A stretch of DNA of 64,000 nt from Sphyrna mokarran (lineage: Eukaryota). The translations under genes and the position numbers were made by a program. Shown one piece after another: positions 500-64,000 of this stretch. The stretch covers positions 28,954,001-29,018,000 of the forward strand of contig JAGIQG010000027.1 of assembly GCA_024679065.1 (NCBI GenBank), given 5' to 3'. Each line of letters starts with the position of its first letter. Position 1 is the stretch's first letter. Under the pieces are notes generated by a model. The model was given only the letters and a program-made list of their open reading frames with translations, was not told the DNA's origin and did not search any database.

Positions 500-1815
500 C
501 AGAAATGAGTCCTTGTGCAAAAAAAATTTTGGGTATGCAGCTGGCTTCAAGCTACAAATTGTGTCATTTGCTAACTTGTCAAACAACTTCTTTGGAATTA
601 GGAGGAATTTGCCCTGAAGACAAACAATATGTTCCTTGGAACAGGGACCAACCACTGATCTGAATTTAAGAAGCATATATTGGAATAGGTCTTCAAATCA
701 CCAGAATATATATATACACTTACATGGGCCAAATGTGAACAAATTAGTTTGTGTAGCTGCATTGTGGAATGAAAATTACTAGTGTGGCAGAAGATCAAAA
801 TCACCCCCAACTACCGAAAGATTTCTTCCAGAATTTCCAATTTCAAACTATTCCTCAGATAATAGCAAAACCATGAGTACCCTATAAATGCTCAACAATT
901 TCAATATGTCCAACAGCCAAACTGGAGTAGAATGGTTCATAAGCAGTTTTAGTGAAAACTGCAGGATACAAGAAGATTCATAATCATACTAGCTTGCGTG
1001 GCTGATGGGATGAAATTAAAGCCTGTGGCAATTTTTAAATGTAAAACTATGTCAAAAAGCAAGTTCCCTGCAGGGAATTATGTGCATAACAATAGTTGGA
1101 CGGCTGAGGGTGATAAGTTGTAAATCAATTGTATGGAATTTATGTTGCAATTACCAATGTAAAGAATTCAGCTTATTTACACATAGGTCACATTCTGATC
1201 CCATATAATCAAATAGATCATGAGGTGTCCAAAGAAATAACACCCAAAGTCTAGTTATACCAGTGACCAAATGATCATAGTTCAATTTTTTTAAATATGT
1301 GCTTCAACAGATGGGGTTGCATGGTGGCAGTGGTTAGCACTGCTGTCTCATAACACCAGGCATGCGGGTTCAATTTGGCCTCGGTGATTGTGTGGAATTT
1401 GCATATTCTCTCTGCATCTGTATGGGTTTCTTCTGAATACTCTGGTTTCCTCCCATACTCCAAAGATATGCAGGTTAGATTGATGGGTTATGCTAAATTG
1501 CCCTTTAGTGTCAGGAGGACTTGTAGGGTAAATATTCGGGGTTATGGAGTCTGGGTGGGATTGTTGCTAGTTTGGGCTTGATGGGTCAAATGACCTCCAT
1601 TTACATTGGAGAGATTCTATGAAACTATTTAGAACCATGTTTGTACTGAATAGAACAGAAAAATGTTAGATGGAGAAAAACCCTTCACGAAGAGTGGGAA
1701 CATGTGCTGCCCTGCTTGATGTTTTCTTGCGGTTTTGTTGTCAAATCATGTGATTATTTAATGCACAAACTTATAAGATTATCCAATTTAGTGGAATGGA
1801 AATTGATTGAAGATG
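500..1815 (+). mobile_element. Degraded pogo-family (POGK-like) DNA transposase, interrupted by a SINE
   Basis: Frameshifted fragments YAAGFKLQIVSFA (Brinker-DBD-like), VLVKTAG, IILACVADGMKLKPVAIFKCKTMSKSKFPAG (~980-1075), MLDGEKPFTKSGNM (~1665-1705). Confidence 0.7.
1312..1622 (+). mobile_element. HE1-type V-SINE
   Basis: tRNA-like head GGTGGCAGTGGTTAGCACTGCTG...GGGTTCAA, V-domain tgtggaatttgcatattctc...ggtttcctcccatactccaaagat, CR1-derived tail. Confidence 0.85.
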
Positions 1816-3282: not shown

Positions 3283-3965
3283 AGTCAATTTGGATGCTAG
3301 AGGGAGTTTTTTCATACAGAGGGTGGTGGGGGCATGGAATGCGCTGCCAAGTGGAGGCAGGGACTCTGGAGTTATTTAAGAGATACTTAGATGGGCACAT
3401 GAACAGAATGGGAGTGGAGGGATATAGAAAACGGATTTAAAATAGGAATCATGAGCCTTGGGAGTTCCCTGGGAAGTTGTAAATTGTCAATGATATTGAT
3501 GTATTTGTTTTATCCTACAGGTACTTCGGTCCGGTTTGTTGTCTTACAAGGGACATACATACGATGGGTCGTGAGAGGGCTGCTCTTGGATTTTGAGAGT
3601 ATTATAGTGCTTCACATCATTACTGTACGCTTGACCTCAACCACTTGATGGGCAACACGACAGCTCAGTGACTATCGCGCTGCTGTGCAGATACATGGAT
3701 TTGGGCTTGTGTCTGTGGGAGTTTGCGCATTCTCCCATGCTTGCGTGGGTTTTCTCCGGGTGCTCCGGTTTCCTCCTACATCCCAAAGATGTACTCTTAG
3801 GCTGACTGGCAGAACAAATTCTCCCTAAATTGTTTCAAATTTAGTTCTATGCATAAATCTATAAACATAGACAGGGATCATGGATAGAAGTGGGGACATT
3901 GAGGTGGCGGCGCAGGCTCGTCGGGCTGAAGGGCCTGTTTCCAGTGCTGTTTTGTTCTTTGTTCA
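3283..3965 (+). mobile_element. 5'-truncated CR1 LINE with long V-SINE-containing 3' UTR
   Basis: ORF2 end (NLDARGSFFIQRVVGAWNALP), ~530-nt UTR matching copies at 56840 and 62403, (GTTCTTT)n end. Confidence 0.88.
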
Positions 3966-15469: not shown

Positions 15470-15777
15470 TCAATGAGAATAGATGGCAGATGGAATTCAA
15501 TCCTGATAAATGCGAGGTGATGCATTTTGGGAGAAAGAATGTAGGGGGGAGGTATATGATAAAAGGTAGACCTATTAAGAATATAGAAACACAGAGGGAC
15601 CTGGGGGTGCAGGTGCACAAGTGTCTGATTGGCAAAAGAAATTTTTCCTAAATTGTGTCAAATTTGGTTCTAATGCATAGATCTACAAACATAGACAGGC
15701 ATCATGGCTAGAAGTGGGAACATCGAGGTGGCAGCGCGGGCTTGTTGAACCGAAGGGCCTGTTTCTTGTTCTTTGTA
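15470..15777 (+). mobile_element. Internally deleted copy of the V-SINE-tailed CR1
   Basis: RWQMEFNPDKCEVMHFGRKNVGGRY...QVHK joined directly to the distal part of the long 3' UTR. Confidence 0.85.
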
Positions 15778-19931: not shown

Positions 19932-20010
19932 ACACAGTAAGAAGTCTGACAACACCAGGTTTAAGTCCAACCGATTTATTTGATAGTAAACTCAGAAGCT
20001 TTAGAGGTGT
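19932..20010 (-). mobile_element. Penelope-like terminal fragment (same family as the 51.6-53.5 kb palindrome)
   Basis: cacagtaagaagtctgacaacaccaggtttaagtccaaccgatttatttgatagtaaac. Confidence 0.8.
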
Positions 20011-33607: not shown

Positions 33608-34586
33608 AGCTTATTAGTGTCACAAATAGGCTTACATTAACACTGCAATGAAATTACTGTTAAAATCCCCTAGTTGCCTCATTCTGGCACTTGTCTGGGT
33701 ACATGAGGGAGCATCTAACATAGCCAATTCACCTAACCAGCATGTCTTTGTCTGTAGGAGGAAACCAATGTAGACATGGGGAGAATAGAATCATAGAAAA
33801 ACTACAGCACAAATAGGCCCTTTGGCCCACAAGTTGCACCAATTTTATCTCTACCTACTAGGCTTACCTATAATCCTCAATCCTATTAAGTCCCATTTAT
33901 TCATTCAAGCCTTTTAAAAGATCCTAACAAATTTACCTCCATCACCACCGATGGCAGCCGATTCCACTCAGCCACCTGAGTGAATGAACTTATGCCTGAC
34001 ATCTCCTCTGTACCTACTCCCCAGCACCTTAAACCTGTGTCCTCTTGTGGCAGCTATTTCAGCCCTGGGGAAAAAGCCTCAGAGTCTATCTAATCAATAC
34101 CTTTCATCAGCTTATACACCTCTATCAAGTCCCCTCTCATCCTTCGTCTCTCTAAGGAGAGAAGATCGAGCTCTCTCAACCTATCCTCATAAGGCATGCC
34201 ACTTAATCCAGGTAACATCCTTGTAAATCTCTGCACTTTTCAATGGCCTCCACATCCTCCCTGCAGTGAGAGGACCAGAACTGAGCACAGTTCTCCAAAT
34301 GGGGTCTGAATAGGATCTTATACAGCTGCAGTATCATTTCCCGACTCCTAAACACAATTCCTCAATTGATGAAGGCCAGTACACCATATGCTTCTTAAGC
34401 GCATCCTCTATCTGCAAAGAGGATTTGAGAGTCCTATGAACTCGGACCCCAAGATCCTTCTGATCTTCCATGCTGCGAAGAGTCTTACCCTTAACATTAT
34501 ATTCCTAATGAGCACACATAGTGACTCAACCTGGGAACTGAACCCAGGTCCTTGGCACATGGCAATACTAACCACCATGTTGCCCT
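33608..34586 (-). mobile_element. V-SINE (33608-33786 + 34508-34586) split by a CR1 3' fragment (33787-34505)
   Basis: SINE tail ttattagtgtcacaaataggcttacattaacactgcaatg and head gaacccaggtcc...actaaccaccatgttgccc flank a CR1 similar to 26428-27110. Confidence 0.8.
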
Positions 34587-34640
34587 GGGAGGCCTAACTC
34601 CCCCAAAAATTTCTTAAATATGCATATGTATAAAAACTTA

Positions 34641-34781
<141 letters not shown>

Positions 34782-36445
34782 TTAATCACTGTACTAAAAT
34801 GCTCAAACTAGAATCAATGGGACCAACGTATAATGTACAAAAACAAGAAATTTGGATTGATTGAGTCTAAACAACCACAACCAAGTTTAGTTGGACCTTC
34901 TTTTCTGAAAGGTATGCAATTATTTTTAACTGTTAAATTTCAAATATAAATTTTGAAACATAAGTAGATCTAACTCAGTAAGTTAGATGTTTTAAAAGTG
35001 GGGAGCATTATGCCATTTAATACATAATTTAACATAGGCAGAAATAAATTGGCTATATTTTTATTATTTTTAAAACAAAAATGAGATGCCTATATTTGAA
35101 CTTTAAAAAGGGGAGAGAAAAGACCATTAAGCTTGCCCCATTCAGAACAGTATATGACTTTTACCCAACACCTAATGAGGCCAAATGACACAAAGAAATA
35201 AAAACATGCAGCCAATTCAGACTTAACCCTAGAAATTTCCCTCCAAACACAGGAGTCAATCGAATAAATTCCAGGAAGTACCTCAAATGCAACTAATAAT
35301 CACTTATCCTCTAACTGGAAATGTGTTATTTTCTCAGAGCTTGCTGTATGTTTTTATTAGGAAGTTAGACTCCTCCTCTAGTGCAAATTTCAGATTTGTG
35401 TAAATTAGCAACGAAATTTTATGAAGTAAAAAAATTGTGGCATCTAACTCTGCTTATGTTTGTAACCTTTTATTTGATCTATTCATCGCAAATTGCTGAT
35501 CTACCAGAAAGAAATAATTGCTTCATCAATTTAAGAAGTGTGAAAATATTCTCTGAAGTTTGCAATAATCAATATAATCCTAACTTTTGGGACTTATTTT
35601 CATAACTCACAAGCTCTATAGTTAGATATTATTTGACCACATTCCTGAAGTACCTCAATGTCCCACACTATTTACTGAAGTGAAAAAGAAGCTAAGTTAT
35701 GTTGCTCAGGATGTTTCTTTTATGGTTAAGAAATTAATTTTTCATTTATGCTTTTCTTTCTTAGAAAACAACATACTCAGAGACCTCCTGCGCACTTTCT
35801 CTGCCTCAATGCCTGTCAAAACTATTTGTTTAAATTACTTGATTCTTTACTCTATGACATGCCACATCATATCATCTAGACACTAGGAAATAAGACATTA
35901 GTGGTGACGCAAGATTGTAATTTGTAAAGTATAATGAAGCTAGAAGTAACAGGTAATGATTGAGAATTTCTTTCCAGCTTTTGTCTTTGGACTTTATGGA
36001 CTCAAAACTCAAAAGCTGTTGCCTAAAGAAAAGAAATTCGAAGAACAGTTCTAGGGTCAGACTTGAATTTCTGCATGTGTTTGACTGAAGACACTAGATA
36101 CAGTAAAAGCTATGGGCCCTGACAACATTTCGGCTGTAATTCCTTTTAAAAACATACAGCAAGCCATAAGAAAATAACATTTCCAGTTAGAGGATAAGTA
36201 ATAATTAGTTGTGTTTATGAGGTACTTCCTGGAATTTAGTCAATTGCCTTCAATAGTTGGAGGGAGATTTCTTGGGTTAAACCTGAATTGGCTGCATATT
36301 TTTGTTTCTTTGCATCATTCGGCCTTAAGTATTGGGTAAAAACCTTAGATTTTGAAAGGTCTATGTTCCTAAATTAGCTATGCCCCAAGCCTAGATTTTC
36401 CATTTAGATTCTATTTAGTTTCCATTTACATTCTAGATTTTCCAT

Positions 36446-37390
36446 TTTGTAATTTTTATAAATGATCTGGATGAGGGTATTGAAGGATGGATTAGTAAAT
36501 TCGCAGATGACACTAAAGTCGGTGGAGTGGTAGATAGTGAAGAGGGGTGTTATAGTTTGCAGAGAGACTTGGACAAGTTGCAGAGCTGGGCCGAGAGGTG
36601 GCAAATGGAGTTTAATGTGGAAAAGTGTGAGGTAATGCACTTTGGCAGGAATAATAAATGTGTAGAGTATAGGGCTAATGGTAGGATTCTTAGTAGTCTT
36701 GATGAACAGAGGGATCTTGGTGTATATGTGCATAGATCCCTGAAAGTAGGCAGTCAAGTCGATAAGGTTGTTAAGAAGGCATATGGAGTCTTAGCTTTTA
36801 TTGGTAGGGGGATTGAATTTCGGAGCCGCAACGTCATGTTGCAACTGTACAAAACTCTAGTGCGGCCGCACTTGGAGTATTGTGTGCAGTTCTGGTCCCC
36901 ACATTATAAGAAAGATGTGGAGGCATTGGAGAGGGTACAGAGGAGGTTTACCAGGATGTTGCCTGGTATGGAGGGCAGGTCTTATGAAGAGAGGCTGAGG
37001 GATTTGAGGTTGTTTTCGTTAGAAAGGAGGCGGCTAAGAGGGGACCTAATCGAAACATATAAGATGATTAGAGGTTTAGATAGGGTGGACAGTGATAGCC
37101 TTTTTCCTAGGATGGAGAAAGCTAGCACGAGGGGACACAGCTTTAAATTAAGGGGTGATAGTTATAGGACGGATATCAGAGGTAGGTTCTTTACCCAAAG
37201 GGTGGTTCGGGAGTGGAATGCCCTGCCTGCAGCAGTTGTAGATGCGCCAAGTTTGGTGGCGTTTAAGAGGTTAGTTGATAAGTATATGGAAGAGAAGGGA
37301 ATGGTTTAGTTTGGAGGGGCATTGCTTTTTATATTGGTCGGCGCAACATCGAAGGCCGAAGGGCCTGTTCTGTGCTGTAATGTTCTATTA
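36446..37390 (+). mobile_element. Young 5'-truncated CR1 LINE with an uninterrupted ORF2 C-terminus
   Basis: KFADDTK followed by open ORF 36527..37309; short (~80 nt) canonical 3' UTR ending gggcctgttctgtgctgtaatgttcta. Confidence 0.95.
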
Positions 37391-38359: not shown

Positions 38360-41300
38360 CACTAGGACACAAAAAGGTACAGCACAGCAACAGGCCCTTT
38401 GGCCCTCCAAGCCTGTACCGATCATGCTGCCCTAACTGAAAAAAAAACATGTTTTGCCTGTCTGGTCCTTATTCCTCTAATACCTCCCAATTCCTGGCCA
38501 TCTAGCTGCCTCTTAAATGTTGCTAATGTGCCTGCTTCTACCATCACCTCTGATGGCGTGTTCCAGGCATCCATCAATCTCTTTGAAAGCCATCTCCCAC
38601 ACATCTCTCAAACTTTCTCCCTCACCTTGAGCATGTGTTCACTTGTAAGTGAAATTTCGACCTGGGAAAAAGCCTCTGACTATTCACTCTGTCTACGTCT
38701 CTCAATTTTGTAGATCTCTATCAGACCTCCCCTCAGCCTCTATCTTTCCAGTGAAATCAACCTCTCCTCAGCCAATGCACAAAAAAAAACAGGTAACATC
38801 CTGGTGAACTTTCTCTACACTCTGTCCAATGCTTCCACTTCTTTCTGGTAACGTAGTGACCAGAACTGCATACAATACTCCAAATGCAGCCCAAGATCTC
38901 ATACAGCTGCAACATGATTTCCCAGCTCTTGTATTCCTGTCCCAGCTAATAAAGGCTTCCTAATCACTTTGGTCACTCGTATTGCCATTTTTAGTCAACT
39001 GTGGACCTGCATGCCTGGATTCCTCTATGTAAATGTCAGAACCCTTGGGAACGTTTACAGTATAATTCACACCTAAATTTATCTTCCAAAATGCATCACC
39101 TCATATTTGTCCAGATTAAACTCCATCTGTCATTTCTGTGCCCAAGTCTCCAATCTATCTATATCTTATTGTATCCTCTGACAATCCCCTGCATCCTCAG
39201 AAAATCCAGTAAGAAGTCTGACAACACCAGGTTTAAATCCAACCGATTTATTTGATAGTAAACTCACAAGTTTTTCACCCTCAGGTGAAGAAAATCCCCA
39301 GCACTATCAGCAACTCCACCAATCTTCGTGTCATCCGCAAATTTACAAATCAGATTCCCAACAATTTTGCGCCAGATCATTTATATAAACTACAGAGGTC
39401 TGAGCACTAACCCTGTGTAACACCACTAGTTATAGATCTCCATTTTGCAAAACCACCCTTCCACTACTACTGTCTTCTATAACCAAACTAGCCATCTAGT
39501 CAGCCCACCCCAAATCCCATTTTAGTTTTTGTACCAGTCTGTCATATAGTACCTTGTCAAACACCTTACTGAAGTCCATATAAACTACATCCACAGCCCA
39601 TCCCTCAATTATCTTTGTTCACCGCTTCAAAAAATTCAATCAAGTTGGTGAGACATGACCTTCACTGTACAAAACCACACTGCCTGTAACTAACCAGTCA
39701 GTTTTCTTCCAAACGTGCATATATCCTGTTCTTTAATATCTCCTCCAAAAGCTTCCCCATCACTGATGTCAGGCTCACTGGCCTATAATTTCCTGCTTCC
39801 TTTCTTAAACAAGGGAACAAAATTGGCAATTCTCTCCAATCTTCTGGAACCTCGCCCATGGTCAAAGAGGATGTGAAGATACCTGTTAAGGCCCCAGCTA
39901 TTTCTTCCCTTGTCTCCTGCAGTAATCTGGAATAGATCCCATATGACCCTGGGGACTTGTCTACATTAATGCAATTTAGGATACCCAACAATTCCTCCTT
40001 CAATATACTGATACTCTTTAGAGCGTTCTTCACATACCTATCCCTGACTTCAACATCCGTCATGTCCTTCTCCTTGGTGAACTTGGTAAATACCAATACA
40101 AAGTATTCATTAAAGACTTTACGCACTTCTTGTGGCTCCACGCATAATTTCATTCCATTGTCCTTGAGTGGGCCTACTGTTCTCTTGCCACCCTCTTATT
40201 CTAATATATGCGTAAAAAAACCTCAGGTTTCTCTTGACCCTAAAGACATTGGCCAAAGATATTTCATGGCCTCTTTTAACCCTCCTAATTCCATCTTTAA
40301 GTTCTTTTCTGCTTTCACTATACTCAAGGGCTTCATTAGTTTTTAGATACCTAGGCCTAATTTTTCCTTTTGACTAAGCTTACAATTTCCCTTGTCATCC
40401 AGGGTTCCCAAATTCTGCCATTTCTATCCTTCATTTTTGCAGGGATGTGCCTGCTCTGCACTTCAATCAACTGGCCTTTAAAAGCATCTCACATGCTAGA
40501 TGTAAATTTGTCTTTAAATAGCCATTCCCAATCCACACTCCCCAATTCCTGTCTAATTTGGATATAACTGGCCCTCACCTGAGGGTCACTCGACCGTAAC
40601 CATGACTACCCAAAATCTTATAGAATTATGGTTGTTAAGCCCAAAATGCTTTCCCACTGAAATATCACCTAGCCCAGCTCATTCTGCAAAACCAAATCTA
40701 GTATACTCTCCCTTCCTGATTGGATTGTCAACATACTGCATCAAAAAGCCCTCCTGGATACATGTAACAAATTGCTCTCTGTCTAAGCCCTGGACATAAG
40801 TGGGTCCCGTGTGCAGGAAGTTAAAGTCACTCACTAGAAATACCCTGCTTTTTTCACACCATGTCAGTATCTGACTACACAACTGCTCTTCTGTCTCCTG
40901 CGGGTTGTTGGGAGTCCATATACACTCCCAACATTGTGATTTCACCCTTTCCATTCCACCCATAATGCCTCACAAACCCCTTGTGATCCAATGTGTCCAC
41001 CCTCAACACAGCTGAGATATACTCCCTAATCAGCAGTGCAACTCCCCCACCGTTTTTTTGTTTTAGACAGAACAGAAGGGAAAACAACAATATCCTGCAA
41101 TGTTAAGCTGCCAGTTCTGTCCCCCTTTTAACCATGTCTCTGTAATTACAATATCATAATTCCATGCAACATCCAGGCTCTCAGTTCATCTGTTTTACCT
41201 GTTATACTTCTCACATTGAAGCAAGCATACTCCAGACCTACAGTCTATGCCTGCTCTTACTCTGCGCTATGTTTATCTCAGTCTCACTACCACCAACCCC

Positions 41301-41490: not shown

Positions 41491-42252
41491 CTAAAACTCT
41501 AAAAGTAGAAGCCCTGGTGTACTACCCATTTTAGTTGCTATTAACAAGCTAGAAAAGTAGTTGATAAAGGATGCCAAAGAACTGGAAAGTTGAGAAATAT
41601 TTGGTGTATACATTGAAATATCACAGCTTCTACACAAGGGGGTTATGCACAGAAAGGGACTTCCAGATGGCATACATAAGGCTAAATCAAGACTAGTGGC
41701 TCAGAGTTTCACAGAGAGACTTGGTGATCAACAGTAAAAATATTTCTGTTTCAGCGCAAATCTATACCAACTGAATGAGTTTTACCATTCACTCTCACTT
41801 TTTTAAGTATTATTGGTTTCCTTGTTTGATTTTTTTGTAATAGTATTATTAAGGAACAGTTAAAAGATAAACTTTATGACACTGCTCTGTCCACTCTGAC
41901 ATATAGTAGTGAAATTATTTATTTTGAATAATCTGTTTCACAATTGAATCAAAGATGCAAAGACCTTTTAATCCATGCTGTTATATCTTCAAGCTGGATA
42001 AATTTGTATTGTGGTCTGGTGAATGATCACATCTCAGTACAGGACAGTGAGTTGAGCTGTTCACAAATTTTGGTTTGTGCACACAATCCCCTAAGTGTCC
42101 AGGCCATCAGGTAACTGAACCAGAGACAATTGAGTGGCACAATGGTTAACACCTGGATCGAGGTTGAGTTGTGCTATCACAGGACCACAAAGATTGATCA
42201 CAGACATGAATAAATAAACTCACGTTCAGCTAGAAGTCCAACTATATGGAGA

Positions 42253-42473
42253 CAAAGAACAAGAACAAAGAACAAAACAGCACGGGAAACAAGCCCTTTG
42301 GCCCAACAAGCCCACGCCGCCACCCTGATGTTCCCACCTCTACCCGTGATCCCTGTCTACGTTTATAGATCTATGGATTAAAAACCAAATTTGAGACAAT
42401 TTAGGGAGAATTTGTTTTGCCAATCAGCCTAAGAGCACATTTTTGGGATGTGGGAAGAAAACGGAGCATCCGG
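42253..42473 (-). mobile_element. Distal 3' UTR fragment of V-SINE-tailed CR1
   Basis: Close match to 56840-57050. Confidence 0.85.
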
Positions 42474-42893
42474 TTGTTTGACATGGGCACAAAGCATCAG
42501 TGACATTTTTATTACTTTTCATAACAGCTGAGATATATTTGGGTTGAAAATGACTGGAAAAAATTATCCAGGGCCATCTTAGTTGGCTGCACTTTAGACA
42601 TAATACCTTTTGGATTAGAAATTTAGATTGTGTTTTCTTGTAATTGTCTAATGCAATTTATTTTAGCCAACATCAGTGACCTTTTAAAAAAAAAGTCTCC
42701 AGTAGTGGGAATTCAGCTTCCAGAAATGGTGTGATGCTACATTGTGCTAAATTAGATCAAACGTGGCAGAATCCAATTAAAATCTCTGCTTCCAAAGATC
42801 ATCAACCACAGAGAACGCTAATACATGAGACAGTCTTTTAAAATGCTTATCTGACACATCCACTGAAGACTGTGGAAAATGAAATTTAATTCT

Positions 42894-43332
42894 GAATTTG
42901 TTTTGCCAATTAGCCCAAGAGCACATTTTTGGGATGTGGGAGGAAACAGGAGCACCCAGTTTCCACACGTGCTCCGTGTGGAAAAACCCCACGCAAGCAC
43001 GGGCCACAGACACAGGCCCAAATCCATGTATCTGCACAGCACAGCGATAGTCACTGAGCTGTCATGTTGCCCATCAAATGGTCCAGGTCAAGCATACACT
43101 AACGACGTGAAGCACTAGGATACTCTCAAAAAACAAATCTAAGAGCAGCCCTCTCACAACCCATCGCGTGTATGCCCCTTGTTAGACAAAATGCATCACC
43201 AAAGCACCTGTAGGACAAAAACAAGCACATCAATATCATCATCTATTTACACACTTCCCAGGGACTCCCAAGGCTCGTGATCCCTATTTTAAATCAGTTT
43301 TCTATACCCCTTCATTCCCATTCTGTTCATGG
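42894..43332 (-). mobile_element. ORF2-end / proximal 3' UTR fragment of V-SINE-tailed CR1
   Basis: Close match to 56985-57413. Confidence 0.85.
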
Positions 43333-43399
43333 CTGTAAATAATTAGATCAGTAAAATGTTCTGAAGGGGAAAAATCCTTTAATTTCAGAAATGGAATGA

Positions 43400-43710
43400 C
43401 ATACTGGCAAGCATTGCTGCCTTTCAGCGCCAAGGACCTAGACTCAGTTCCAGCCTCAGGTCACTTTCTGTGTGAAGTTTGTACATTCTCTCCATGTCTG
43501 CCTAGGTTTCTACGGGTGCTCTGGTTTCCTCCCACACTCCATAGATGTGTGGGTTAGGTTGATTGGCCATGCTAAATTACCTCTTAGTGTCAGGGGATTA
43601 GCTGGGTAAATGTGTGAGAATACCAGGATACGACTTGGATCAGATTGTCAGTGCAGACTTGATGGGTCAGATAGCCTCCTTCTACATCGAAGGAATTGCA
43701 TGATTCTATA
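43400..43710 (+). mobile_element. HE1-type V-SINE
   Basis: tRNA-like head remnant, V-domain, gattctata tail. Confidence 0.85.
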
Positions 43711-44569
43711 AGATGTCAGAGTGGACTTCCCCCATTGCGGGAAAATTGAACTTGAAGATTTTCTTAGCACTTCTGGCAACATATTCTTTAGAATGAAAAT
43801 TGATTGATATATAAACTGCATTTTTGCATGGTGAGAAATTTCACAGGGAAATGTTTGTCAAACTAGATGAAGCTTGTGTTACAGAAGAGAAAGTGTAGAA
43901 AATAAACAAACGTTATGGGTTGAATGATCAAGGATGAGTTATTTCTGTTAAGTCCATTCTGTTAAAAACTGGGTTGTACTCAGCTAAAAGCAAAGCCAGT
44001 AATGTTCTATTGGTATCACAAGGAGAAACTGGCAAGTATCTTTATGTTGCTCACTGATGATTTGAGCAATGAGTGATAAATAAAGTAAGAGTTTAAGGTT
44101 GGAAGACATGCTTCAAGAGCATTTAAATACATAAGTTTATAGGGTCAGACAGATTGAACATTACGCAAAATAAGTCAGGACTGATCTGGAATCAACCATC
44201 TTATTTAGAAAATGTGGATTGTATTCCAATAAATTGAGGCATATCCTCACAGGTGAAACAGACCAATTAAAAAGTCTGACTGGACAATTGAATAGGTTGT
44301 GCACATGACAAATCTGATGCTATTTATGATGTACCGGAACTGAGTACTCCAACAAAAAAATACAATTGAGCAAGTTCTGAGAGCAAAGAAAACATTAAGA
44401 AATTAAATTCAGAGAAAAGTACACTCAAAAGTTTCCAACATGGGATGATCAAGAGCAAGTGAAGTTAGTGGTTTTTTAGCAGTGCTTCACATGCCAATCT
44501 TTCAAATAAGACATCACTACAGCAGTCATATTCTCGGTGGGAGAAAAGTAACAAGAACTATGTATAGGC

Positions 44570-49267: not shown

Positions 49268-49567
49268 ATCATAGAATAACAAAATCACTACAGTATATAA
49301 GGAGGGCCTATTGACCCTACACTGATAGCAATCACACCAACACCCTATCCCCATAACCTAATGTATTTACCCTGTTGATCTGTCTGAGGCAATTTAGCAC
49401 GATCAATGCACCTAACCTGCACACTTTTGGACTGCGGGATAAAAGCAGAGCACCTGGAGAAAACCCATGCAGACACATGAAGAATATGCAAACTTCACAC
49501 AGACAGTGACCCAAGGCTGGAATTGAACCTGACACTATGAGGTAGCAGTGCTAACCACAGTGCCACT
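49268..49567 (-). mobile_element. HE1-type V-SINE
   Basis: Reverse complement of GTGGCAC.GTGGTTAGCACTGC head and V-domain. Confidence 0.85.
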
Positions 49568-50209
49568 GTATTGTTTTTTATTTTGCAAGTCCCTGCTCGG
49601 AAGCCAATCTTGGCAAATTTGGCTCTCACTCAAGAAGGGAACGCTCTAGAGGACACAGCTCCAGGAGTAGAAAGGGTACCTGTAGCTGTGTTAATGGGAG
49701 CATGAGATTCCAGATCTTGGGGTGGAGCAAATAAAGTGTCCAAACATCAGAGATGCAGACATGCAAGAACGTAAGCACAGAGCACCACTCTTGCTGCATG
49801 ACATATGGAGGCAATTCTCCCATCCCACTGTGCTGCTTTTGACCAGGAAATTCGAAGGAAGTTGTTTTGCAGGATGCCAGCTGGGCGCCACGGCTGCCAC
49901 AATTCTCCTGCAGCTAGATTCCCGACACTGTCAGCTCCATGCCAGAAATTGGCACACAACTGAATGAATTATGGTAATTTGCAATTCTTTTACGCATCAT
50001 TTACGGGCCTGTAACTGAAATCTCCTGGCCTGCTCACTTCTCTCTCAGCAATCCCCCTCCTCCTTGCTCCACAAATGCCAGGAGGTTTTCACGCGAGTGG
50101 TGTTTAGTATAATTCCCCATTTGCAGGAAGCTGTAGCTCAACCCTGCTGGATGGAAGTCTCCCTAGGCACTACCACCCTGGCAGAACCTGCTTTGGCCCC
50201 CCTACTCCC

Positions 50210-51155: not shown

Positions 51156-51281
51156 ATGTGTTTTATAAGGACTGAAGAACGAATTGCAGTTAGCCAATGA
51201 ATCACTGAATACATCTGTTGATCTGCTGTTGACATCAATACCATTGTAGTAACGATTCACACTTTTCAAAATAGTTTTTGG
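51156..51281 (-). CDS. MEIOC: MEIOC coding exon 2 (PKTILKSVNRYYNGIDVNSRSTDVFSDSLANCNSFFSPYKTH)
   Basis: ttttctctttttcag| acceptor, |GTAAGA donor, 126 nt, phase 0-0; resembles recalled mammalian PKVAF...NR...TDVF. Confidence 0.85.
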
Positions 51282-51394
51282 CTGAAAAAGAGAAAACCCT
51301 TATGAACTTTGGTCATTGGGTATTTTAAAATTATTAACTTAAAATGACTAATAAATTTTAATCAGAGAAAGGAATATTTTTTATGAAATATAAA

Positions 51395-51595
51395 CAAAGA
51401 ACAAAAGTATAGCACAGGAACAGGCCTTTCGGCCCTGCAAACCTGAATTGATCATGACATCCTAACTAAAAAAATTTACTCGGTCCATACTCCTCTACCC
51501 ATCCGGATGCCTGTCAAATGTTGCTAATATGTCTGCTTCCACCATATCCTTTGGCAGTGCGTATCAGGCACCCACCACTCTGTCTGAAAAGCTCC
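51395..51595 (-). mobile_element. CR1 tail fragment hosting the Penelope insertion (continues 53451-53490)
   Basis: gcacaggaacaggcctttcggccc...ctctgtctgaaaagctcc | ccccagacatctctc. Confidence 0.7.
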
Positions 51596-53450
51596 ATGAT
51601 GTAGCGATGCTGGTGTTGGACTGGGGTAAAACACAGTAAAAAGTCTGACAATACCAGTTTTAAATCCAACTGATTAATTTGATAGCTTTTGGCTCTATGG
51701 CCTTCATCAGGCGAATGAGGTGTTCTGGTCTCCAAAAGCACACATATCAGCACAGACAGTTTACAGATTACTGATTAGAATGCGAATCTTTACACCGAAC
51801 CTGCTATTCAAGTCTTAAAGTGGCTAACAATGTGAATGGAAGGAGCACTGAGCACAGGTTAAAGGAGATGTGTATTGTCTCCAGACAGCACACTAAGTGA
51901 GGTTTTTTGCTAACCCAGGCAAGTCATGGGGGTTACAGATAGTGTGACATGAAGCCAAGATCCCTGTTAAGACCGTCCTCATGCGTGCAGAACTTGGCTA
52001 TCAGTCTCTGCGCTGTCGTGAAGGCCCCCTTGAAGAACGTTTACCCGAAGGTCGGAGGCCGAATGCCCATGACCGCTGAAGTGTTCGCCAATAGGAAGGG
52101 AACAGTTTTGCCTGGTGATAGTGGATGAATGAACATCACTCGACAGTCGTAGTGTCTGCATGGTCTTCCCAACGTACCATGCTTCAGGACATTCTTTCTT
52201 GCAACATATTAGGTAGACAACATTGGCCGAGTTGCACGAGTATGTACCGTGTACCTGGTGAATGGTACTCTCACGTTTGATGATGTCATCCACGTCGATG
52301 ATCCGACATGTCTCCCAGAGGTTGCTGTGGCAGGGTTGTGGGGTATTGTGGTCACTGTTCTCCTGAAGGCTGGGTACTTTGCTGCGAACAATGATCTGTT
52401 TGAGGTTGCACGGTTGTCTGAAGGCGAGAAGTGGAGATGGCCCTAGCGAGATGTTCATCATCATCATCAATGATATGTCGAAGACTCCGGAGAAGATGTC
52501 GTCCAGTGCTTTGTTGTCCAGTACTTCTCCGGAGCGGAAGAGCTACAGCATCTTCTCCGGAGTCTTCAACATATCATTGATGATGATGAACATCTCACTA
52601 GGACCATCCCTACACCCCCACTTCTCGCCTTCAGACAACTGCGCAACCTCAAAAAGACCATTGTTCGCAGCAAAGTACCCAACCTACAGGAGAAGGGTGA
52701 CCACAATACCACACAACCCTGCCACAGCAAACTCTGGGAGACATGTCAGATCATCGACGTGGACGACATCATCAAACGTGAGAGTACCATTCACTAGGTA
52801 CACGGTACATACTCTTGCAACTCGGCCAATGTTGTCTACCTAACATGTTGCAAGAAAGGATGTCCCGAAGCATAGCACATTGGGAAGACCATGCAGACAC
52901 TACGACAGTGGATGAATGAACATCGCTCGACAATCACAAGGCAAAACTGTTCCCTTCCTGTTGGCGAATACTTCAGTGGTCACGGGCATTCGGCCTCCGA
53001 CCGTCGGGTAAACATTCTTCAAGGGGGCCTTCACGACACACGACAGTGCAGAGCCGCTGAGCAGAGACTGATAGCCAAGTTCCGCACGCATGAGGATGGT
53101 CTTAACAGGGATCTTGGCTTCATGTCACACTATCTGTAACCCCCATGACTTGCCTGGGTTAGCAAAAAATCTCATTTAGTGTACTGCCTGGAGACAATAC
53201 ACACCTCTTTAACTTGTGCTCAATGCTCCTTTCACTCACATTGTTAGCCACTTTAAGACTTGAATAGCAGGTTAACTGTAAAGATTTGCATTCTAATCAG
53301 CAATCTGTAAACTATCTGTGCTGATATTGGAGCTATTGGAGACCAGAACACCTCATTCATCTGACGAAGACCATAGAGCCGAAAGCTTGCGTGTTTACTA
53401 TCAAATAAATTGGTTGGATTTAAAACTGGTGTTGTCAGATGTCTTACTGT
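51596..53450. mobile_element. Palindromic Penelope-like element: two head-to-head GIY-YIG/3'-end arms (51596-52498 minus; 52549-53450 plus)
   Basis: GIY-YIG motifs NVVYLICC..C...WYVGKT..LR; arms are reverse complements; TSD (t)gaaaagctcc at 51585-51595 and 53450-53460. Confidence 0.92.
53355..53393 (+). ncRNA. Minimal hammerhead ribozyme motif in the PLE terminus (degenerate mirror copy at 51680-51715, minus)
   Basis: CTGACGA-agaccatagagcc-GAAA-gcttgcgtg; mirror copy CTGATGA-AGGC catag a GCC-AAAA. Confidence 0.55.
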
Positions 53451-53524
53451 GAAAAGCTCCCCCCAGACATCTCTCTTAAGCTTTGCCCAAATATGCAATC
53501 CCTATGACTGTCTACCTTCAGATA

Positions 53525-54270: not shown

Positions 54271-54886
54271 AATTTGTTTTAATATTAGAATGAAATTCAC
54301 AAAAGTAATTAGCACTATAAATCCAAACAATCTGAACATCCTTCCAGCATGCCCTCTTTGACTTTGCCATTATTCTTGATTATACCTTTTTGAAGCATCA
54401 TGAATAATTTAACAACAAACATTGCACATGAAACATTTGTAAGTATTACTCTTGCTCAGTGGCAAAGGATAGAAAACACTCTCTCAAGAACTGGACTCTG
54501 ATCTGGGAACAACAAGACTTTTTCCACAACAGCTGGTTAAAGATAACCTAAAGTCAAGTACAACTTTCTTACAGTAATAGCGAAGCCTGAATAACTGTCA
54601 AAGCACTCTTTTAACATGTGCTGCAACAATGGGAAAACCCAAACTTGGATAACATTCAGGCTTGAGCTAATAATTTGCACCACATAAGCCCAAAGGCCAT
54701 TTCCAACAAGAAAGGAACTATCTACAACCAACCTTTGACATTCGATGGCACTATCCATCACTGAATCCTTCAGCATGTCATATAGTGTATCAAAAAATAA
54801 CCCATTTTATACATGAGACATCTGGAAACCATTGATCATGCGTGAAAGAGACTGAAAAGATTAATACCAGTTTTAAAAATCACACT

Positions 54887-55210
54887 GTTAGCACTGCTCC
54901 TTCACAGCTCCAAAAACCGAGGTTTGATTCCCGGCTTGGGTGACTGTTTGTATCGTATTTGCACATTCTCCTTGTGTCTGTGTGGGTTTCCTCTGGGTTC
55001 TCCAGTTTCCTCCCACAGTCCAAAGACGTGCGAGTCAGGTTGATTGGCCGTGCTAAAAGAAATTGTCCTTAGTATCCTGAAATGCGTAGGTTAGAGGGAT
55101 TAGTGGGTAAAATATGTAGGGATGTGGGGGTAGGGCCCGGGTGAGATTGTGGTCAGTGCAAGCTCCATGGTCCAAATGGCCTCTTTCGGTACTGTGGGGT
55201 TTCTATGATG
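54887..55210 (+). mobile_element. HE1-type V-SINE
   Basis: gttagcactgct...ggtttgattcccggcttgggt, V-domain, ttctatga tail. Confidence 0.88.
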
Positions 55211-56059: not shown

Positions 56060-56065
56060 CTCCAT
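56060..56065 (-). CDS. MEIOC: MEIOC coding exon 1 (2 codons, Met-Glu)
   Basis: cacacATGGAG|GTGAGG donor inside the CpG island; phase 0 joins exon 2 to give MEPKT...; unspliced read-through gives MEVRR, like the recalled human N-terminus. Confidence 0.7.
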
Positions 56066-56414
56066 GTGTGCGCGGTTCGGCTGGAAAGAGTGGGGTGCCC
56101 TCTCTGAATTGTTTTTTCTCCGGGCAGAGGGACGGGAATCAGCCGCGGATCACGAGTGGGTTGACTTTCGACGCCGGAGTGGCCCATCTGCCGCTTCTCT
56201 CCCCCTTCCTTCCCTCCCTTCTCTCTTCACTGACTGATGGCCAGGGACCGTTAAGGGCTCGGCCAATTCGTGCCCGCGCTCGCGCGCCGAACGGACGACC
56301 ACCCCTCGCGCCCCTTCCCGCGCTCGCCGCGAGCCTCCATCGCATTGGTCAATGGGGAAGCTGTGGGGGAGGGGGAGCGCGAGGGGGAGGGGGAGCGCGA
56401 GGAGGAGCAGCAGC

Positions 56415-56482
56415 AGCCTCAGGCGAGCACGAGCTGAGGAGGAGACTTCCAACGTGCGAGCTCGAGGCACTTTTCACCTCAG
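56415..56482. promoter_or_regulatory. Cluster of STRA8-type CNCCTCAG motifs
   Basis: CTCCTCAG (minus, 56434-56441), CACCTCAG (plus, 56475-56482), near-match AGCCTCAG (56415-56422). Confidence 0.5.
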
Positions 56483-56839
56483 TACCAACGCCTGTTCCCA
56501 GCTTTCACCCCCACGTCGGCCGGTGACAGGAAAGTGGGCGGGGTGTCATTGGCCAGGGCCTCCAATCTGATTGGGGGGGGGAGCCGCAGCGTCCTCCTAT
56601 TGGCTGGCGTGTGCAAAAGGGGACGGGGTGTCGCTGGCCAGGGCTGCCGATCTGATTGGGAGAGAGCTGCAAAGTTCTCCTATTGGCTGAGAGGTGAACA
56701 GCCCCGCCCCTCCGTCTCCGCCCCGCCCTCTGTGTGACGCGACAACGCGCGAAGCTCCAACGAAAAAGTTCCTGGCGCGAGGTAAGTAATCGGCCAACAG
56801 TCAGAAAGAGCTTCGAATTTTTTAAAGAGAAGCTATTAA

Positions 56840-58200
56840 GAACAAAGAACAAAACAGCACGGGAAACAGGCCCTTCGGCCCAACGAGCAAGCGCCGCCTC
56901 CCCGATATTCCCATCTCTACCCGCGATCCCTGTCCATGTTTATAGATCTATGGATTAAAAACCAAATTTGAGACAATTTAGGGAGAATTTGTTTTGCCAA
57001 TTAGCCTAAGAGCACATCTTTGGGATGTGGGAGGAAACCGGAGCTCCAGGAGAAAACCCACGCAAGCACGGGGAGAATGCGCAAACTCCCACAGACACAG
57101 GCCCAAATCCATGTATCTGCACAGCACAGAGATAGTCACTGAGTTGTCGTGTTGCCCATCAAATGGCCCAGGTCAAGCATACACTAACAACGTGAAGCAC
57201 TAGGATACTCTCAAAAAAAATCCAAGAGCAGCCCTCCCACGACCCATCGCGTGTATGCCCCTCGTTAGACAACAAGGTGGACCAAAGCACCTGTAGGATA
57301 AAAACAAGTACATCAATATAATCATCTATTTACACACTTCCCAGGGACTCCCAAGGCTCATGATCCCTATTTTACATCAGTTTTCTATACCCCTCCATTC
57401 CCATTCTGTTCATGTGCCCATCTAAGTATTTCTTAAATAACTCCAGAGTACCTGCCTCCACCACGTTACTTGGCAGCGCATTCCATACCCCCACCACCCT
57501 CTGTGTGAAAAAACTCCCTCTAGCATCCAAATTATACCTTACCCCCTTCACCCTAAGCCCGTGACCCCTCGTGCTATTTGAGTCCATCCTAGGAAAAAGC
57601 TTAACCCTGTTTACTCTATCAATCCCCTTCAAAATCTTGTACACCTCTATCAAATCTCCTCTAAGTCTACGTCTTTCTAAGGAAAACAGTCCCAATTTGC
57701 CTGATCTCTCCTTATAATTCGGACCTTCCATACCAGGCAGCATCCTGGTAAACCTCCTCTGCACTCTCTCCAGAGTCTCCACGTCCTTCCGGTAGTAAGG
57801 CGACCAGAAGTGGATGCAGTATTCCAAATGAGGTCTAACCAGTGTTTTATACAACTGCAACATTAAAGGCCAGCTCTTGTACTCTATACCCCTTCCTATA
57901 AAGGCTAACATGCTATATGCTTTCTTCACAACCTTCTCCACTTGCTCTGCCACCTTCAGAGACTTGTTCACCTGCACCCCCAGGTCCTTCTGCGTTTCTA
58001 TATTCTTAATAGGTCTACCCTTTATCATATACCTCCCCCCTACATTCTTTCTCCCGAAATGCATCACCTCACATTTATCAGGATTGAATTCCATCTGCCA
58101 TCTATCTGGCCAGGCTACCAGTCTATCTATGTCCTGCTGTATCGTCTGACAATGCTCCTCACTATCCGCAAGTCTGACAATGCTCCTCACTATCTGCAAG
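56840..58200 (-). mobile_element. Young 5'-truncated CR1 with V-SINE-containing 3' UTR
   Basis: Open ORF 57372..58199 (ORF2 C-terminus) plus ~530-nt UTR; 28-bp tandem duplication at the 5' junction. Confidence 0.95.
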
Positions 58201-58612
58201 TTACTGTATCCTCCATATCATAAATCTCAGGCAACTGTTCTCAACATGAGTAACCGTTGTATATATCTTTACAACCAATAAATGTGCCAATCCAAGTCAA
58301 AACAAAAGTGCAAAGCCATTGAGATTTACTTTATTTACTAGTGTCATAAGTAGGCTTATATTATCAATTCAATGAAAATTTGAGGCTTAGTTTGGAACTT
58401 AATGTAATACCATTTTGTTTGGGGCTTTGCTTACCCTAGATTTTCAGGCTACAATCCTTTATGCCTGGAAAAGCAGCCAACCCTACCTGGAAATGCAGAC
58501 AAACTTCATATCCTTATGCTCCAGCAACAATCATTCCAATAACTGTCATGATTTTTAGCTCTTGGGAAAAATCAGCGCTTCCACAATTTCTCATAACTGA
58601 GCAATATGGGTC

Positions 58613-58890
58613 AGCAGGGTGGCACAGTGGTTAGCGCTGCTGCCTCAGTGCCAGGGACCCGGGTTCAATTTCCAGCTTGGGTCACTGTCTGTGTGGAGTT
58701 TGTATGTTTTCCCACGTCTGTGTGGGTTTCCTCTGGGTGCTTCAGTTTCCACCTACAATCTGAAAGATGCTGGTTAGGTGCATTGGCCATGCTAAGTTCT
58801 CCCTTAGTATACCCAAACAAGCACTGAAGCGTGGCACCTAGGGAATTTTCACATTAACTTTATTGCAGTGTTAACGTAAATCTATATATG
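58613..58890 (+). mobile_element. V-SINE with alternative tail
   Basis: GGTGGCACAGTGGTTAGCGCTGCTGCC...GGGTTCAATT head, V-domain, tail cacattaactttattgcagtgttaacgtaa (same type as 33608). Confidence 0.85.
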
Positions 58891-59109
58891 ACCCTAATAT
58901 AAATAATCACAGAAGTTAAGAGCTTATTATGAATATTATGTGTGTGTATGTATATTATATATACTGTGTATATATGTGCACATATATACACAGTTTTTTG
59001 CCTTTGTTGCTTGTGGTGAAAGGTCAACTGTTTGTTGTAGAATTCCATCTCCATCCTGAACTTCATTTTCATTGAAAAATTGGAGAAAATGAAAGTTTGT
59101 CAAACTTTG

Positions 59110-59285
59110 TAACTGACAGACATTCCTTAAAGACATTAATGACCCTGATAGGTTTTTACGACGTTGCACGGTTGCATGATACCATTATGGAGACTGGTTT
59201 ACAATTCTAGGTTTTCTTAATTAATTAATTGTATCCTTGTAGCATTAAACTTGGCCTCTGGATTTCTGGTCCAGTGATAATAATT
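59110..59285 (-). mobile_element. Deu-type SINE fragment (SacSINE1-like)
   Basis: Minus strand tcactggaccagaaatccagaggcc...aaaaacctatcagggtcattaatgtctttaagg. Confidence 0.6.
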
Positions 59286-62402: not shown

Positions 62403-64000
62403 AAAGAACAAAGAACAAAACAGCATGGGAAACATGCCCTTTGGCCCGGCGAGCCCGTGCCGCCACCCCAATGTTCCCACCTCTACCCATGATCCCTGTC
62501 TATGTTTATAGATCTATGGATTAAAAACCAAATTTTGACACAATTTAGGGAGAATTTGTTTTGCCAATTAGCCTAAGAGCACATCTTTGGGATGTGGGAG
62601 GAAACCGGAGCACCCGGAGAAAACCCATGCAAGCACAGGGAGAATGTGCAAACTCCCACAGACACAGGCCCAAATCCATGTATCTGCACAGCACAGCGAT
62701 AGTCACTGAGCTGTTGTGTTGCCCATCAAATGGTCCAGGTCAAGTGTACACTAACGACATGAAGCACGAGGATACTCTCGAAAAAGATCCAAGAGCAGCC
62801 CTCTCATGACCCATCGCGTGTATGCCCCTCGTTAGACAACAAGGTGGACCAAAGCACCTGTAGGATAAAAACAAGTACATCAATATCATCTATTTACACA
62901 CTTTCCAGGGACTCCTAAGGCTCGTGATCCCTATTTTAAATCAGTTTTCTATACCCCTCCATTCCCATTCTGTTCATGTGCCCATCTAAGTGTTTCTTAA
63001 ATAGCCCCAGAGTACCTGCCTCCACCACTTTACTTGGCAGCGCATTCCATACCCCCACCACCCTCTGTGTGAAAAAACTCCCTCTAGCATCCAAATTATA
63101 CCTTACCCCCCTCACCCTAAGCCCGTGACCCCTCGTGCTATTCGAGTCCATCCTAGGAAAAAGCTTATCCCTGTTTACTCTATCTATAGCCCTCATAATC
63201 TTGTACACTATTAGATCTCCTCTAAGTCTACGTCTTTCTAAGGAAAACAGTCCCAATTTGCCTAACCTCTCCTCGTAACTCAGACCTTCCATACCAGGCA
63301 GCATCCTGGTAAACCTCCTCTGCACTCTCTCCAGAGTCTCCACGTCCTTCCGGTAATAAGGCGACCAGAGGTGGTCTAACCAACATTTTATACAACTGCA
63401 ACATTAAAGGCCAGCTCTTGTACTCTATACCCCTTCCTATAAAGGCTAGCATACTATATGCTTTCTTCACAACCTTCTCCACTTGCTCTGCCACCTTCAG
63501 AGACTTGTTCACCTGCACCCCCAGGTCCCTCTGCGTTTCTATACTCTTAATAGGTCTACCCTTTATCATATACCTCCCCCTTACATTCTTTCTCCCGAAA
63601 TGCATCACCTCACATTTATCAGGATTGAATTCCATCTGCCATCTATCTGCCCAAGCTACCAGCCTATCTATGTCCTGCTGCATCGCCTGACAATGCTCCT
63701 CACTATCCGCAAGTCCAGCCATCTTTGTATCGTCTGCAAACTTGCTGATCACTCCACTTACTCCCTCTTCCAAGTCATTTATATATATTACAAATTGAAG
63801 AGGTCCCAGTACCAAGCCCTGCGGCATACCACTAGTGACTGACCTCCAGCTAGAAAAACACCCTTCCACTATTACTCTCAGTCTCCTATTACTAAGCCAG
63901 TTACTTATCCATCTAGCTACCTGTCCTTGTATCCCATGAGCCTTGACCTTCTCAACTAACCTCCCATGAGGGACTTAAACGCCTTCAAACGCCTTACTAA
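62403..64000 (-). mobile_element. Young CR1 with V-SINE-containing 3' UTR (runs off the window)
   Basis: ORFs 63228..63869 (SKFADDTK) and 62936..63343; small deletion near LVRP causes the frameshift; highly similar to the 56840 copy. Confidence 0.95.

Follow-up and report, generated by a model that had tools for sequence, protein, structure and literature searches.

A family of CR1 LINEs in the 64 kb stretch of shark DNA analyzed here (the window) carries the V domain of a V-SINE, preceded by a relic of the tRNA-type SINE head, in its 3′ untranslated region (UTR). We consider it probable that this ORF2-coding family captured a V-SINE a single time and then amplified. Fixation of the capture before amplification is supported by the junctions, which are the same in all four informative copies. 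The direction, from SINE to LINE, is indicated by the relic head standing before V and by the other CR1 3′ ends, since the seven that we examined run from ORF2 straight to the tail and have no V domain. The reverse capture proposed in an earlier, sequence-only reading, of a SINE into the UTR of a LINE, is to this extent supported.

Copies of the CR1/V family and their common layout

A blastn search with the UTR of copy A recovered it at all six spots where the earlier reading had placed it (E 0 to 2e-35; 82–92% identity to copy A), and the family totals ~4.5 kb of the window. The six matches amount, however, to about five insertions, since two of them, D and E, are probably one. Copies A, B, C and D have a single layout of ORF2 stop, 214-nt linker, relic tRNA-type SINE head and ~118-nt V domain, followed by a CR1 hairpin and TGTTCTT repeats that are intact in three of the four. 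The end of ORF2, the linker, the head and V stand in one register throughout, and a shifted junction, which had been named as the check on a single capture, was found in 0/4 copies.

Copy A (56838 to ~58174, minus strand) is 5′-truncated and has a short tandem duplication at its 5′ junction. Its ORF2 3′ end (57372..58174) is free of stops for ~266 codons and has 63% amino-acid identity to the CR1 at 36.4–37.3 kb. After the ORF2 stop (57374–57372) comes a 532-nt UTR that reaches 56840 and consists, on the same strand, of the 214-nt linker (57158..57371), the relic tRNA-type V-SINE head (57099..57157, with the first 33 nt recognizable), the V domain with its usual 3′ extension (56981..57098), a 76-nt post-V segment (56905..56980), and a CR1-type terminal stem-loop with TGTTCTT repeats (56838..56904), made of an outer stem and a GGGCC-GAAG-GGCCT hairpin. 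The ordinary CR1 3′ end at 36437..37390 (plus strand), with its stop at 37309 and no V domain, has a UTR of ~80 nt, which confirms the difference in UTR length noticed earlier. Likewise, the ~200 nt of unique sequence reported after the ORF2 stop corresponds to the linker, which is unmatched in the window outside the family.

Copy B (62403..64000, minus strand, continuing past the window end) is the longest, with part of the RT domain, a complete UTR and a 20-nt frameshifting deletion. Copy C (3287..3964, plus strand) has ~150 nt of ORF2 with an 8-nt deletion and a complete UTR, and belongs to a second subfamily. Copy D (42894..43331, minus strand) comprises the last 40 nt of ORF2, the linker, the head and V, and stops within the V extension; its V domain has lost 16 nt and gained 22 nt, the insertion making an inverted repeat within V (42950–42990, minus strand). 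Copy E (42261..42475, minus strand) holds the 3′ half of V, the post-V segment and the tail. D and E overlap by 68 nt, as a duplication, have one private change in common, and are separated by 418 nt of unique sequence (42476–42893) that matches nothing elsewhere in the window; E is probably the 3′ part of D, the two forming one broken insertion. The deletion, inverted insertion and break in D, together with the 68-nt duplication, resemble repair by template switching.

Copy F (15479..15765, plus strand) belongs to the same subfamily as C. At a CTGA microhomology (4 nt) it passes from 150 nt of ORF2, 95% identical to A, directly into the terminal ~140 nt of the UTR; ~950 nt are deleted and only ~21 nt of the V segment are left. 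The statement that the UTR recurs six times is not confirmed as it stands, D and E probably being one insertion and F an ORF2 piece plus a UTR end with most of V gone. Because F joins family ORF2 to family tail at this microhomology, ORF2 and tail were once on one molecule. Over 1341 columns A and B share 92.5% identity, and C is at 87%; C and F share four derived sites relative to A, B and E (139 columns), indicating at least two subfamilies.

Head, V domain and tail in the UTR of the family

The first 33 nt of the head match the published head of the frog V-SINE Pyad at 23–24 of 33 ungapped positions in A–D (hand count; 23/33 in A). A match of 24/33 has a binomial probability of 1e-8, or 3e-6 allowing 270 start positions, and seven of the nine differences between the majority-state head and the frog consensus are transitions (hand count). 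The A box is altered at both ends and the B box is absent, with an exact match to either box (consensus patterns) in no copy, and the spacing from head to V is ~19 nt shorter than in the frog V-SINE, the B box falling within the missing part (hand count). An HMM built from the six decayed free heads of the window did not detect the relic, and its summed local scores against the free heads were reached by 235–471 of 500 shuffles. Among 13 sliding 30-column profiles, only the 5′-most one, which covers the A box, placed all four relics high (ranks 7, 8, 10 and 14 of about 128,000 positions). The tRNA-like head described in the sequence-only reading is thus degenerate and without its B box, as had been said, but it is recognizable over 33 nt only and gives no signal in the HMM and local-score tests built from the window.

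Since the A box is changed, the B box is missing and no copy starts at the head, the captured SINE is dead as a Pol III unit. Two defining features of V-SINEs are lacking, a tRNA-derived head with A and B boxes (there is a 33-nt relic and no tRNA call) and movement as a head-to-tail unit of its own (0/6 spots begin at the head), so the family is not a V-SINE member. To describe the LINE as carrying its own parasite is therefore an overstatement; with a dead Pol III promoter the insert is better called a passenger module.

The V domain itself is identified with certainty in copies A and B from its sequence, and its length falls within the 80–120 bp of V-SINE V domains. The V_HCD consensus agrees with copy A at 72/87 columns and with copy B at 75/87 (hand count; alignment in the supplement of PMC6887750), bearing out the V-domain assignment made earlier. 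Each of the two is 63–75% identical to the V domains of five free SINEs in the window (copy A, 66–74%), and the majority rows of the family and of the free SINEs agree at 92/113 columns.

Beyond V, the terminal hairpin reaches 24–25 bits with a model of seven CR1 tails, and no more than 2.9 bits when the model is built from four free V-SINE tails. With its outer stem and inner hairpin present, it is the CR1 stem-loop tail that had been claimed. The description of the insert as a whole V-SINE is likely; it is borne out for the V domain and the 33-nt head, while the tail, of CR1-LINE type and not that of the free V-SINEs of the window, may have come with the SINE or have been the LINE's own. Over 12 tails, 88% of 139 cells are paired, compared with 27–50% when the pairing is slid; covariation was not above shuffles (58 of 500), and z-scores for the folding of single tails are about −1.

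Because the tail is unlike that of the common free SINE, either the donor was another SINE or only the head and V were taken. We give a slightly better than even chance to a complete SINE as donor, from a subfamily with no free copy found in the window; insertion of head and V in front of the LINE's own tail is possible, though less likely. The post-V segment is unlike that of the free SINEs and weakly like the ORF2 end of a CR1 at 51393–51590, in collinear alignment (0–15 of 300 shuffles as high in five copies, for a match picked from 12 comparisons), and the tail of this CR1 is also the closest to the family tail. Such a likeness would follow if the 3′ part had originally been taken from the end of another CR1. 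The match was the top window hit for only one of three copies, and an HMM of CR1 ends gave no detection. A half-hairpin relic lies directly before the head in A (57191–57163), B and D (1–6 of 1000 shuffles); it was seen with two of five models only and is absent from C, and LINE-tail models found no complete old LINE tail in the linker. These two features, each obtained only after several trials, would favor a whole SINE of another subfamily, as weak hints of which neither is robust. Skate V-SINEs probably end in a hairpin of the CR1/V-family type.

ORF2 and the spread of the family

We propose that a V-SINE entered a master CR1 a single time, in sense orientation and at the end of the LINE's 3′ UTR, and that this CR1 was amplified afterwards. 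The join could have arisen by a template switch during target-primed reverse transcription, with the reverse transcriptase (RT) starting on the tail of the SINE RNA, copying as far as its 5′ end and then jumping to the LINE RNA, or by insertion of a SINE at the 3′ end of the LINE. Both routes agree with the starting point of the relic, which is where V-SINE heads naturally begin. The LINE transcript would run through the SINE and ORF2 would begin reverse transcription at the terminal hairpin, leaving V in every copy longer than about 260 nt; it is established that CR1-type LINEs require their 3′ end for recognition (PMC3747384). In the master lineage the head would have decayed and V remained near consensus, while the family, encoding its own ORF2, would have passed through at least two subfamilies.

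In this single-capture account V is most likely a passenger, and mild constraint on it is possible. It is unlikely, in our judgment, that the family is an autonomous CR1 lineage in which an entire V-SINE was captured, the Pol III promoter of the SINE was lost and V has been kept by selection. Selection could act through RNA stability, RNP assembly or template switching, with the LINE-borne V offering a homology platform for tail exchange between V-SINEs and LINEs; this reading, which we likewise doubt, adds to the single-capture explanation and does not replace it. V is 83–86% identical to the V consensus, against 70–73% over 33 nt for a head that has lost ~19 nt, and MER6 also lost its head and retained V (PMC6887750). 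Between copies, however, the dead head is just as well conserved as V, the folding of V is nothing unusual (z −0.54), and the seven other CR1 3′ ends lack V. Changes specific to copy C fall at 6/148 positions in ORF2, 7/160 in head plus V and 1/49 in the tail, and at 24/251 in linker plus post-V. The rate was lower than in linker plus post-V for ORF2 (P = 0.05) and for head plus V (P = 0.057; 0.033 with indels), but V alone gave P = 0.14 and 0.12, in a test of one copy with regions chosen afterwards. These rates would agree with ORF2 and V having been constrained in the master lineage.

A non-autonomous composite, in which a truncated or internally deleted CR1 joined to a V-SINE would depend on a promoter of the host or a borrowed one for transcription and on another CR1 for copying in trans, seems to us a shade less likely again. 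It would suit the contents of the window, where no full-length copy, endonuclease or ORF1 was found (copy B leaves the window at 64000), and internally deleted CR1 derivatives have been described (PMC6740152). Contrary to the earlier statement that the youngest copies have open ORF2 ends, ORF2 is open in one of the three copies with more than 100 nt of terminal ORF2 (A, ~266 codons); B has lost 20 nt and 3 nt in two deletions, C 8 nt in one. All three deletions are, however, private to single copies, and copy B, whose ORF2 is at least 1 kb long and includes RT motifs, meets no stop ahead of its private deletion. Between the subfamilies, moreover, ORF2 has gathered fewer changes than the linker, which again speaks against a composite.

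The evidence for selection on ORF2 is borderline or absent, as a composite would have it. A and B differ by 21 amino-acid changes where 25.7 are expected under neutrality (P = 0.048 in a simulation keeping substitution types); the same simulation gave P = 0.076 for A–F and 0.73 for A–C. By codon position there was no third-position excess between A and B at non-CpG sites (11/245 vs 20/499, P = 0.85). A Nei-Gojobori pN/pS of 0.39 for A versus B was set aside, being inflated by transitions. The claim that the family spreads V autonomously therefore holds insofar as V has spread with the LINE; autonomy is less secure, with no full-length copy, one open ORF2 and selection that is borderline by simulation and nil by codon position. 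The A/B differences in ORF2 are also asymmetric, with A in copy A and G in copy B at 13 of 36 sites and the reverse at two (57375–58172 in A, 62939–63713 in B; not polarised), which could be editing or a subfamily difference.

The RT of copy B matches RVT_1 (Pfam, E 5e-17), and among the matches listed the relatives of the family ORF2 are CR1-type RT proteins, about 40–79% identical, from sharks, rays, birds and turtles; the label CR1 clade rests on these protein matches and on the tail. No relative at 80% identity or more was present among the best 120 of 1786 longer proteins or the best 120 of 452 proteins of similar length, the best in the matches listed being 67% and 79%, respectively. In an ORF2 tree (drawn open), A, B and C cluster together, separate from the six further CR1 fragments included (support 88/99); copy C fills 30% of the columns.

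It is very improbable that V is native to the LINE UTR and that V-SINEs took it from there: SINE bodies can derive from LINE UTRs (PMC5786205), but a tRNA-type head relic stands immediately before V, the other CR1s of the window have no V, and V-SINEs reach as far as bivalves and cnidarians (PMC4824008). Independent SINE insertions beside CR1 fragments, or local segmental duplication, are refuted within the window: CR1 fragments and V-SINEs are dense there and one CR1 lies inside a V-SINE at 33.6–34.6 kb, yet the 214-nt linker, degenerate head and 3′ end are common to the copies with identical junctions, which rules out independent insertion, and unrelated flanks, different 5′ truncation points and both orientations mark them as retrotransposed copies of a structure fixed in the master. 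By eye, no target-site duplications were found around the family copies.

Related systems and genomic setting

The family works like a CR1 LINE and shows the CR1 features that could be tested, namely an RT related to CR1, 5′-truncated copies with a common 3′ end, and a 3′ stem-loop followed by short tandem repeats (TGTTCTT in A, B, C and E). Shark CR1-clade LINEs as described (HER1 and the consensuses of PMC13343379) are alike in the ORF2 C-terminus, 5′ truncation, terminal stem-loop and short repeats, and the family differs from them in its 532-nt UTR with head relic and V domain. CR1-group elements make up 22–34% of elasmobranch genomes (PMC13343379); the main text of that paper uses ‘UTR’ once, for a 5′ UTR, and ‘SINE’ once. 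The HE1 element of sharks and rays is a V-SINE partnered with HER1 (PMC3747384). With V-SINEs such as HE1, Ac1 and DANA the family shares the V domain and the 5′ part of the head; unlike them it has no working A or B box and no start at the head, and its V always lies downstream of ORF2 and the linker. Its tail is also unlike those of the four CR1-tailed free V-SINEs of the window.

The closest described case is MER6/MER6A, an Ac1-like V-SINE captured in a Tc1/Mariner MITE (PMC6887750). There too another mobile element captured a V-SINE, the head was lost and the carrier spreads V, and the MER6 V segment agrees with copies A and B at 92/104 and 93/104 columns, respectively (hand count; supplement of the same paper). 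However, MER6 is a non-autonomous mammalian DNA transposon, whereas the shark carrier is a retrotransposon with ORF2 in which V is part of the RNA template, adjoining the RT recognition hairpin. Two retroelements are joined by RT template switching or nesting in Alu/L1 (PMC13174262) and L1-BovB (PMC6036668) chimeras. Those are individual insertions as described, whereas the shark chimera is an amplified family. Some BovB lineages, reportedly noted by Walsh and colleagues in 2013, carry incorporated SINEs; they would be a LINE precedent, though not one for a conserved domain.

As a general matter, LINEs that have taken up SINE or tRNA-like pieces are known (PMC5786205), and conserved SINE domains are stated not to have been found in LINEs (PMC5804259; PMC5786205). 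The shark family is a sequence-level counter-example to the latter statement. We found no report of a LINE-borne V domain in the literature searched, beyond whose reach most subscription papers lay, and so abundant a family may well exist as an uninterpreted consensus in Repbase, Dfam or the 2026 elasmobranch CR1 consensuses. What preserves SINE body domains such as V through hundreds of millions of years is a standing question, which the family lets one approach in two ways that SINEs by themselves do not: by comparing how fast V changes with the rates of the surrounding UTR and of ORF2 in different LINE subfamilies, and by measuring cis retrotransposition once V has been deleted. If V is a neutral passenger, the family is a good example of mosaic element evolution, though of modest weight. 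If the lineage is autonomous and V is selected, a conserved SINE domain works inside a LINE, which would be a natural substrate for V-mediated tail exchange between SINEs and LINEs and a ready system for testing V function by retrotransposition assay. For annotation, truncated copies of the family will be taken for V-SINEs, and where a shark transcript has a V domain, this LINE may be its source.

The minus strand of the window encodes MEIOC (Pfam match), whose coding exons run from 51281 down to 8633 and whose large exon is 92–93% identical to the Heterodontus francisci and Scyliorhinus canicula proteins, 87% to a skate protein and 84% to a chimaera protein. A probable first coding exon at 56065–56054 (minus strand; ATG GAG, then a GT donor) would complete the MEIOC ‘ME-PK’ start, with its acceptor at 51281, and sits in a CpG island where CCAAT- and GC-box-like motifs recur (56100–56790). 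A GTAAGT donor on the plus strand at 56782 suggests a divergent transcript near the MEIOC start; the terminus of copy A lies ~57 nt past this donor and ~770 nt upstream of the start, oriented toward the promoter. Splice-acceptor-like sites (pyrimidine tract, CAG/G) occur in the linker at 57308–57290, 62875 and 43225, all on the minus strand, and three of the 12 strict acceptor-like matches in the window are in family copies; the site in copy C has a one-base deletion. Copy D, with the site at 43225, lies in sense orientation within a MEIOC intron.

No tRNA genes were called in the window (ARAGORN), Rfam gave no match at E ≤ 1 in the family and one weak, unrelated match in the window, and a blastn search of plasmid sequences gave no match. 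Three loci found in a scan of prokaryotic genomes, at 40–59% identity, were rejected as not belonging to the CR1/V family. CR1-type RT proteins 62–67% identical to the family ORF2 also occur under bacterial names on short contigs (P0042, P0122, P0124) and are probably contamination from host animals.

Many other CR1 fragments lie in the window, together with six free V-SINE copies of two types that have head and V in common and differ in their tails, a local example of tail exchange. CR1-type hairpin tails are found at 1316–1634 (plus strand), 43392–43712 (plus), 49278–49575 (minus) and 54880–55210 (plus). An unrelated tail is found in the best-preserved copy, at 58608..58905 (plus), and at 33608–33786 (minus) in a copy that is split (33608–34590, minus); here the nesting is the opposite one, with a CR1 fragment (33785–34506) between head and V. 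An isolated SINE-head-like fragment with an exact A-box match lies at 42124–42172 (plus strand), just past the 3′ end of copy E. A rearranged element at 51620–53460 has terminal repeats of ~70 nt that recur four times, with short related repeats at 19933–20002 and 39201–39274. Pfam gave no match at E ≤ 1 for its translations (51982–52542 and 52474–52794), which we take to recall the GIY-YIG endonuclease of Penelope-like elements. Finally, two long inverted-repeat pairs, at 59122–59282/59978–60144 and 35159–35363/36140–36341, are 78% and 83% identical, with arms about 0.7–0.8 kb apart, and are possibly MITE-like DNA elements.
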